From Octopus vulgaris (taxonomy: Eukaryota): 64,000 bases of DNA. A program made the position numbers and the translations under genes. This document shows, piece after piece, positions 4,393 to 5,888 of the stretch; positions within the stretch are counted from its first letter, which is position 1; each line of letters starts with the position of its first letter. The stretch covers positions 5,518,001 to 5,582,000 of the forward strand of contig OX597842.1 of the NCBI GenBank assembly GCA_951406725.2, written 5' to 3'. The notes beneath the pieces are model-generated. The model did no database searches. It was not told the origin of the DNA and saw only the letters and a list, made by a program, of their open reading frames with translations.

Positions 4393-4463
4393 TATATATT
4401 ACAGTTAAGAGATGAGGAATTATTTACATTTGGTGGATATTTGTCCTCGTCTTGTTTGTTGTT

Positions 4464-4509
4464 AACACAACATTTCGGCTGATATACCCTCCAGCCTTCT
4501 TCAGGTGTC
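4464..4509 (-). ncRNA. Minimal hammerhead motif, left arm
   Basis: Minus strand GACAC-CTGAAGA-A-GGCTG-GAGGGTATAT-CAGCC-GAAA-TGTT-GTGTT. Stems I and II pair. Confidence 0.6.
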
Positions 4510-4864
4510 TTGGGGAAAATTTCAAACCTGGGTTCTCATTCCTAAGGTATTTTTTGATGTTATTATCGTTATTATTATTATTCAGGTCACTGCCTGGAAT
4601 CAAATTCAGAATCTTGGGGTTAGTAGCCCGTGCGCTTAACCATTATGAGCATATGGTGTAGTGGTTAGGAGCATGGGCTACTAACTGCAAGTTTCTGAGT
4701 TCGGTTCCAAGCAGTGACCTGGGCATATGGCGTAGTGGTTAAGAGCACGGGCTACTAACTGCAGTATTCCAAGTTTGATTCTAGGCAGTGACCTGAATAA
4801 TAATAATAATAATATCATCAAAAAATACCTTAGGAATGAGAACCCAGGTTCAAAATTTTCCCAA

Positions 4865-4910
4865 GACACCTGATGAAGGCTGGAGGGTATATCAGCTGAA
4901 ATGTTGTGTT
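4865..4910 (+). ncRNA. Minimal hammerhead motif, right arm
   Basis: GACAC-CTGATGA-A-GGCTG-GAGGGTATAT-CAGCT-GAAA-TGTT-GTGTT. Confidence 0.6.
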
Positions 4911-5888
4911 AACAACAAACAAGATGAGGACACATATCCATCAAATATAAATAATGTATATACATACATATGTGTATATATTTTGATTGGGTTTTGGAGA
5001 GGAAATTCACAAAAAAGTCATCATCTACTGATTTTTTAATGTGCTTTGTGTGTGTGGGGAAATGTAAAGATGTGCACGACCACCCTTGGACGGTTTTGAA
5101 TGACCACAGAAAGTGCGATCCCTCTAACTGAAAAATTGGGGATTTGTATAAATTTTGTGCCGTTTATATATATATATATATGTGTGTGCGTTAGTGTTCG
5201 TCTCCCACCACTGTTGGTTAAAAGCTTCCAGTTCCATATGAACTTTGCGTTCGAAAGGTCTTCTCAACATTTAGAAAGTTTGGTAATTTCCAAATCGCTC
5301 TGTTCTGCACATTTGGCAACAACGATGCCAGCATCTCTTTCCATTTCTTGCGTTAGCATTTCATCTGCCATGGGGAAACTGAAAGAAATAAATAGTCTTT
5401 TAATTGCTTTCGAGTGAGTAATACCCTGATAAGTGTCTTAAACGACCACTCACACCCTGTGTGTGTCTGTGTGTCTGCGCATGCAGGCGAGGCTGTCTGG
5501 TTAAGAAGTTTCTGCCCCGAACATGTGGCCTTCAAGTTCAGTTCCCACTGCACTCTACCTCTATTAGTATAACCCTAGGCCAAACAAAGCCTTGTAGATA
5601 GAAAGTGAAAGAAACGTGTGTATATGTATGTATGTGTTTATGTGTGTATGTATCTTTATATGTATGTATACATGTTTATAGATGTCTATGTGTGTATGTA
5701 TGTATGTGTGTATATCTATATGTGTGTGTGCTTTGTTTCAGTTATTAGTCTGCGGCCATGCTGGGGCACAGCCTTGAAGAATGACTCGGCCCCCAATACT
5801 TACTTTCCTTTTTAAACCTGGTATTTATTCTATCAGTTACAGGAATGTAAACACACCAGCACTGGTTATTAAGTAGTGGTAGGGGACA

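Follow-up and report, generated by a model that had tools for sequence, protein, structure and literature searches.

A decayed head-to-head pair of Penelope-type pLTRs in the octopus genome with a tRNA-derived head as a likely Pol III promoter

Introduction

EN+ Penelope-like elements (PLEs) of the Penelope/Poseidon type, such as Penelope of D. virilis and Poseidon of Anolis, contain a single ORF that codes for an RT with a C-terminal GIY-YIG (PMC11167929; PMC8557442; PMC4209133). Their pLTR holds a minimal hammerhead in which one base is added and stem III is palindromic, and the start of the ORF overlaps the ribozyme. In the parts covered here, one study of these minimal hammerheads describes a conserved base between positions 9 and 10.1 and a palindromic 15.2-16.2 pair, and reports that cleavage is weak and occurs as dimers only (PMC4209133). 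Insertions are found in AT-rich targets and may present an optional tail of 30-40 nt at one end together with an inverted, 5′-truncated partner (PMC8557442). For Anolis Poseidon, the available passages place this tail between two internal RT start sites in the beginning of the ORF, which itself begins in the hammerhead (HHR), and state that HHR mutants still insert and that the uncleaved RNA is the main substrate (PMC11167929). The promoter described for D. virilis Penelope is LINE-like, internal and located in the pLTR (PMC2377424).

Ribozymes of this kind and Pol III promoters are also known from other repeats. In the passages on Schistosoma SM-alpha and Sj-alpha, a short repeat of high copy number has a hammerhead downstream of a Pol III-type, tRNA-related promoter, the tandem repeats are released by active cleavage and a protein-coding parent is not named (PMC6765202, PMC2770079). 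TRIMp3 elements (Helenus, Ajax, Cassandra) carry a Pol III promoter derived from a small RNA in a retrotransposon terminal repeat; they are non-autonomous, non-coding LTR elements with PBS, PPT and 4-5 bp TSDs, and their author argues that autonomous partners must use Pol II (PMC10886601). Animal non-LTR retrozymes are short HHR-bearing units related to PLE pLTRs, organized as head-to-tail tandem units that give circular RNAs, and the parts of these sources covered here report no tRNA head (PMC7229834; bioRxiv 10.64898/2026.07.22.740005).

Heads with A and B boxes are also found in tRNA-derived SINEs, and those mobilised by LINEs continue into a LINE 3′ end, a simple repeat or an A tail. Ohshima and Okada are said to have described in 1994 three octopus SINEs with tRNA-derived heads, OK, OR1 and OR2, of which OR1 and OR2 reportedly derive from tRNA-Arg. 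OR2 has been classed as a CORE SINE (PMC4758252).

Here we analysed a stretch of 64,000 nt of Octopus vulgaris DNA (the window) that contains a palindromic element with two hammerheads and tRNA-like heads. An earlier note had read this element as a combination that it did not recognise. A Pol III SINE with a hammerhead was in fact already known in Schistosoma (PMC6765202), and a palindrome with a ribozyme is known PLE biology. The octopus family shares the Penelope/Poseidon features listed above. Unlike Penelope and Poseidon, the octopus pLTR opens with a tRNA-derived A/B-box head, in contrast to the LINE-like promoter described for Penelope, and continues into an (AAT)n tract; its copies are mostly solo pLTRs that begin at the head, and its sense majority lacks T4 runs. 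It also differs from SM-alpha and Sj-alpha, since the ribozyme is of the minimal PLE type and lies within coding sequence, and since the parent whose pLTR forms the unit has been identified. Unlike in TRIMp3, the head sits in the protein-coding element itself, which belongs to the PLE class and whose repeat flanks a PLE ORF. In contrast to non-LTR retrozymes, the window locus and most paired loci are head-to-head. Finally, where a LINE-mobilised SINE would have its characteristic end, the unit has N-terminal PLE coding sequence as its 3′ part, and a body of this kind would separate the family from OR2, which is described as a CORE SINE.

Results

The palindrome itself was confirmed. Segments 4419-4525 and 4849-4955 are 92% complementary, and a min-HHR descriptor run on the 64-kb window gave two matches only, at 4870 (+) and 4504 (-), with 0 matches in 100 dinucleotide shuffles. 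Over their full length, left and right arms are 89% identical (237 nt). By alignment, the right arm (4721..4958, +) is a pLTR copy that ends at the tail-less 3′ site (unit position 238), and the left arm (4401..4655, -) is a full pLTR copy with a tail that spans unit positions 4-263 and whose head is damaged at its 5′ end. Comparison with tailed copies identified positions 4401..4421 (-) as a Penelope-type optional tail with an internal deletion, present in the left arm only. Because the left arm has such a tail and the right arm, ending at 4958, does not, we placed the left limit of the element at about 4401. The inverted arms are found inside the interval 4419..4955 originally proposed, whereas both limits lie further out.

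The centre of the locus carries tRNA-like heads, as had been noticed; instead of two divergent heads there are three, one on the (-) strand and two in tandem on the (+) strand. The left head (4581..4655, -) was located by alignment, its A box is broken at the inversion junction and its B box (4596-4605) is mutated. The extra tandem head (4647..4720, +), 84% identical to the next one, has an A box at 4654-4664 and a B box at 4699-4708 with A58 changed; the sequence at 4699-4708, GTTCGGTTCC, had been assigned to the left arm and belongs to this head. The right head (4721..4794, +) has an A box at 4728-4738 and a B box at 4773-4782 with CpG decay, and is nearest to tRNA-Arg among the tRNAs sampled. 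Between this head and the start codon lies an (AAT)n tract (4796..4814, +) whose length varies between the copies compared. The first 41 codons of a retrotransposon ORF (4836..4958, +) remain open through the right minimal type-I hammerhead (4865..4910, +; core CTGATGA at 4870-4876, two CpG-decay changes). The left minimal type-I hammerhead (4464..4509, -; core CTGAAGA from 4504) has a decayed stem III; both ribozymes are descriptor matches. Mutations affect each of the three B boxes and the stem III of both ribozymes in the window copy, which is probably dead. The insertion is surrounded by a TA-rich microsatellite and no target duplication (TSD) was evident at the window locus. At another locus (L014:1191-1500), about eight tandem truncated heads of 38 nt form an array between two inverted arms, and the extra head of the window may be a milder case of slippage as in that array.

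We searched a genome of 2.8 Gb in 227 contigs. With one arm as query, 4,991 candidates were obtained, and the 40 that were scored, the window's own copy aside, were near full length with 88-93% identity; head and ribozyme do recur as a unit, a supposition on which the earlier reading had depended. We sampled contigs C1-C10 systematically in 76 stretches of 10 kb and found 17 loci; an inverted arm lay next to 10 of these and ORF sequence upstream of 2. Extrapolation gave a family size of about 60,000 loci (∼63,000; 95% range 36,000-100,000). Exact 20-mers of the 3′ part, the head, the ORF end and the ORF start were counted 11,770, 5,148, 1,013 and 79 times, respectively, the ORF-end 20-mer being located ∼65 nt upstream of the head 20-mer. 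Median divergence between copies at non-CpG sites was 6.2%, equal in short and ORF-attached copies. A subfamily split between these two classes disappeared (p 0.08-1.0) when loci chosen for their similarity to one copy were left out, in a haplotype comparison of unbiased sets that held only 10-16 ORF-attached copies; the split was an ascertainment artefact. In four loci (L368, L369, L371, L345) the copy continues from the pLTR through the initial 120-270 nt of the ORF and from there jumps back to another pLTR, which is consistent with template switching.

Some copies have common sequence upstream of the head, and walking upstream led to endonuclease-like and then to RT coding sequence. Three loci (L171, L172, L173) are near full length, and L173 shows the order head, (AAT)n, hammerhead, tail, ORF, stop and head. 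In the unit, the head is followed by (AAT)n, ATG, hammerhead, tail, the rest of an RT + GIY-YIG ORF, the stop codon, 30 nt and the next head, and a pLTR holding the hammerhead is found at element ends in L173, L350 and L363. Of 30 loci selected with an ORF-start 20-mer, most have the tail continuous with the ORF start. In the window, the ATG at 4836 (unit position 116) begins the 41 codons that reach the end of the arm, and the per-column majority of the copies is stop-free for 835 codons from this ATG, ending 30 nt before the next head. The 835-codon protein is 72% identical to P0017 and, from residue 11, 57% identical to P0025, in which the hammerhead-encoded peptide is kept in frame. Relatives with 57-75% identity carry RVT_1, and the C-terminal part aligns with the PF01541 GIY-YIG stretch of P0113 (E 4e-28). 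Pfam gave no match with four broken fragments of the family itself, a PDB sequence search with an RT fragment gave 0 matches, and the AlphaFold model of the EN region (pLDDT 37) was unusable. None of 56 scored candidates had an intact ORF, the longest stop-free frame being 569 aa, and therefore the family looks inactive. In a quick tree of 23 rows, which did not include named reference PLE sequences, the protein grouped with an Anolis protein and with insect and coral proteins, apart from the other PLE type of the genome. This grouping, together with sequence motifs, suggests the Poseidon label for the family.

Since the junction between pLTR and ORF is common to dozens of loci, a linkage by chance is disfavoured. 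Judged by its sequence, each arm is the pLTR of a protein-coding, Penelope/Poseidon-type retrotransposon. The proposal that a Penelope RT had made the copies was borne out by the identification of a parent element with RT and GIY-YIG; the view of the arm as a chimera between a SINE and a ribozyme was not, since the whole arm corresponds to the pLTR plus the first codons of this family.

Another PLE family, with intact ORFs of 781 aa, came out of a GIY-YIG family search and was discarded as a partner because its pLTR had no match. This family (L061-L064 and many other loci) has intact RT + GIY-YIG frames of 771-781 aa and carries tandem repeats at the 3′ end, and L061-L063 have a further long ORF upstream; its sequence makes recent activity likely, and its motifs suggest a Neptune-like element. 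The window also holds a second inverted repeat at 155-535 (arms 155-291 and 399-535, 94%), with a hammerhead-like motif on the (+) strand (CTGATGA near 416, GAAAC-GATC-GTA near 484-495) that has a long loop II. This repeat recurs elsewhere, is palindromic also in L039 and is possibly the pLTR of a different PLE family. Two open frames, 61280-61795 (-) and 11410-11802 (-), resemble 3′ fragments of LINE RTs, presumably RTE-like and CR1-like, respectively, by their motifs.

The head of the unit is 74 nt long, and its majority sequence has the tRNA invariants at their canonical numbers (T8, A14, G18, C32-T33, G53-T54-T55-C56, A58 and C61). Among 27 distinct tRNA genes sampled from the genome, a sample that lacks many isotypes, its best match was tRNA-Arg. 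ARAGORN called 0 tRNA genes in the window and 0 in 60 loci, Rfam on 4380-4980 at E<=10 called neither a tRNA nor a hammerhead, and relaxed ARAGORN on relatives returned noise; we assign a tRNA origin to the head because of the position-exact invariants and the alignment to the tRNA genes of the genome. An intact B box was the commonest state (11/28 heads). Another tRNA-headed SINE family is present in the window at 1517-1751, 3409-3506, 9247-9481 and 10751-10985, with a head unrelated to that of the pLTR. Furthermore, 62257-62375 (-) is a full-length match to 5S rRNA (105.6 bits) placed right after an (AAT)n tract and with no T4 run directly behind, probably a retroposed copy.

We examined where copies end at the head in 109 arms taken from three sets, namely 30 ribozyme-picked loci, 30 loci picked on the 3′ 20-mer and the 76 systematic stretches. 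Thirty-eight of the 109 arms end <=12 nt from the head start and 10 extend beyond it, and the stop rate at the head start was 79% per 25 nt versus 5-20% elsewhere. In tRNA genes, transcription starts at a set distance from the A box, and the stop lies at that distance. Three ORF-bearing copies have an upstream pLTR that extends to the head start (L173, L362, L372), and all three begin at positions 1-4; partial tandems, such as L174, occur too. The 5′ junctions are spread over ∼10 nt, not fixed at one base, and a 5-bp hairpin, TGCCC-AC-GGGCA, lies across the head start. Starts at the head occur, too, in copies flanked by unique sequence (L008, L029, L100, L223, L317 and L328). Heads that were intact at their 3′ end never preceded another kind of body in the systematic sample.

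A pLTR that carries, at its 5′ edge, a head derived from a tRNA and bearing canonical A/B boxes looks new. No description of a tRNA head in a PLE pLTR was found in the literature searched, which extended to few subscription journals and to neither Repbase nor Dfam, and the covered parts of two octopus repeat surveys, PMC13282606 (with a term search of its supplement) and PMC8967140, contain nothing on a tRNA-headed pLTR. Viral contigs yielded no DNA of close relatives, and metagenome contigs gave 9 distant loci (30-55%), none of which matched the head or the pLTR by blastn.

The hammerhead is predicted to cut after GUU at 4905. In sense matches from copies that had not been selected on the ribozyme, stem III read ACGTT in 31, ATGTT in 11 and ACATT in 10 cases; since ACGTT is the commonest form, AATGTT in the window corresponds to CpG decay of ACGT, as the earlier note had suspected. 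The extra A after the core, which it had listed as a caveat, is a conserved feature of PLE minimal hammerheads (PMC4209133). Palindrome, extra A and palindromic stem III are all described PLE features and hence ordinary for the class. The intact 45-nt ribozyme has 887 exact occurrences in the genome and is predicted to work only as a dimer or with the help of a protein. In a distant relative (L281) the same ribozyme architecture is present with a different stem II, and the sequence upstream is T-rich with no match to the head. Ten of 84 truncated arms start at unit positions 185-194 and none exactly at the cut, where a palindrome is present; among these 84 arms, 5′ ends were not convincingly enriched at the cut site. 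Because copies run without interruption across the cut, the 185-nt cleaved RNA is excluded as template, uncleaved RNA being the template instead, and the use of self-cleavage in making copies was abandoned. Cleavage would remove the first ATG from the ORF, and for this reason we speculate that the ribozyme may gate translation. In RNA viruses, according to the part of the source covered, self-cleavage can promote cap-independent translation (PMC13725137).

The 3′ ends of the 109 arms fell into two clusters, at unit positions 237-244 and 266-269. The two end sites are 31 nt apart, and the optional tail accordingly measures 31 nt. There were 46 head-to-head pairs, 37 of which had both 3′ ends intact. 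One tail was found in 33 of these 37 pairs and none in 4; two tails were never found, compared with 7.4 pairs expected (p 3e-4).

Finally, we looked at T4 runs and at RNA data. The 2,653-nt sense majority contains 0 T4 runs and 30 A4 runs, and natural copies contain 15 T4 runs in 35.9 kb, versus 9 in 2.3 kb in the other PLE family. A synonymous shuffle of the full ORF gave p 0.012 for the absence of T4, and Markov nulls gave p 0.07 and 0.13, values that make this absence suggestive only; on a shorter frame p was 0.097, and 2 other ORFs in the same test were also T4-free. The RNA data comprised three raw RNA-seq runs (∼6% of each read) and one contig set, from an organism whose label may differ from this genome. 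Reads were abundant and equal in both orientations, 77-79% of them continued into unrelated sequence in the raw runs, and neither starts nor ends piled up at the head or at the cut site. Depth showed a ∼2.8-fold step at the head start, as in the copy counts. This pattern fits read-through of genomic copies and speaks neither for nor against a Pol III RNA.

Discussion

We interpret the locus as a decayed head-to-head insertion of two pLTRs, in which the tRNA-derived head is likely the Pol III promoter and likely also the 5′ end of the copied RNA, a reading to which we assign a probability of about 0.7. The sequence of the head makes Pol III initiation there likely, and RNA would start at this point. 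By analogy with the known PLE mechanism, the element's protein would nick AT-rich DNA and reverse transcription would be primed inside the RNA, at either of two sites that follow the ribozyme. The cDNA, extended as far as the 5′ end of the RNA, would then be a SINE-like unit of 238 or 269 nt, templated either by the 5′ pLTR within the full mRNA or by short RNAs from solo pLTRs. ORF-bearing copies, mostly truncated, would come from priming in the 3′ pLTR, and repair at both ends of the target would leave an inverted pair with one tail. The hammerhead would be carried along, unused in making copies.

The head could also be a passive SINE relic in the 3′ UTR of a Penelope driven by Pol II, with short copies that are merely 5′-truncated because the RT was stalled by the hairpin or the cDNA folded back. 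The hairpin does span the boundary, many junctions at the head start are fold-backs, short and ORF-attached copies have haplotypes and age in common, and a LINE-like promoter has been described in the pLTR of D. virilis Penelope (PMC2377424). Yet head-start copies with unique flanks exist, the stop lies at the A-box distance expected of a tRNA gene, intact A/B boxes are the commonest state, the unit is free of T4 runs and the systematic sample held no intact-ended head before a different body, and we consider a passive relic unlikely. Somewhat doubtful, too, is the idea that the short copies make up a non-autonomous SINE lineage that is independent, has master genes of its own and is moved in trans by the Penelope protein. 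By 20-mer counts, there are ∼5 short copies for each ORF-attached one, ORF sequence was upstream in only 2/17 sampled loci, and non-autonomous PLE derivatives have been described (bioRxiv 10.64898/2026.07.22.740005; PMC8557442). Against such a lineage, the diagnostic differences vanished without the similarity-picked loci (ORF-attached n=10-16), both classes have the same divergence, and priming in the 5′ pLTR of the mRNA itself accounts for short copies in cis.

A third scenario, in which the hammerhead cuts after GUU and the cleaved product, of 185 nt or circularised, is the transposition intermediate as in retrozymes, appears very improbable. The motif is intact in 887 exact copies, its architecture is kept with another stem II in L281, and truncated arms do start close to the cut (10/84). 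These starts avoid the exact cut position, which moreover lies in a palindrome, whereas copies cross the site from head to tail, and the window arms are head-to-head, not tandem; insertion by HHR mutants and the use of uncleaved RNA in Anolis Poseidon (PMC11167929) point in the same direction.

Starting from the preferred reading of the head as Pol III promoter, the element could go further and be an autonomous retrotransposon that is Pol III-transcribed from end to end. A T4-free RNA of 2.9 kb would be made from a captured tRNA promoter and translated without a cap from the ATG that just precedes the element's hammerhead, and internal priming would produce SINE-like copies of the 5′ end in the tens of thousands. 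We put this forward tentatively, as a possibility that falls well short of probable. If true, a SINE and its driver would be found in one element, and a full-length Pol III product would put to the test the view that an autonomous retrotransposon depends on Pol II and a cap.

The near-exclusive presence of one tail per pair provides a clean genomic constraint on a step of PLE integration that is still unexplained. The analysis also identifies what drives a SINE-looking repeat of very high abundance (about 60,000 loci), and indicates that a repeat of this type can be the promoter end of a Penelope and not a LINE parasite; annotation pipelines would probably class it as a SINE. The capture of Pol III promoters into terminal repeats, an idea put forward with TRIMp3, is in this way extended from non-autonomous LTR elements to a protein-coding PLE.
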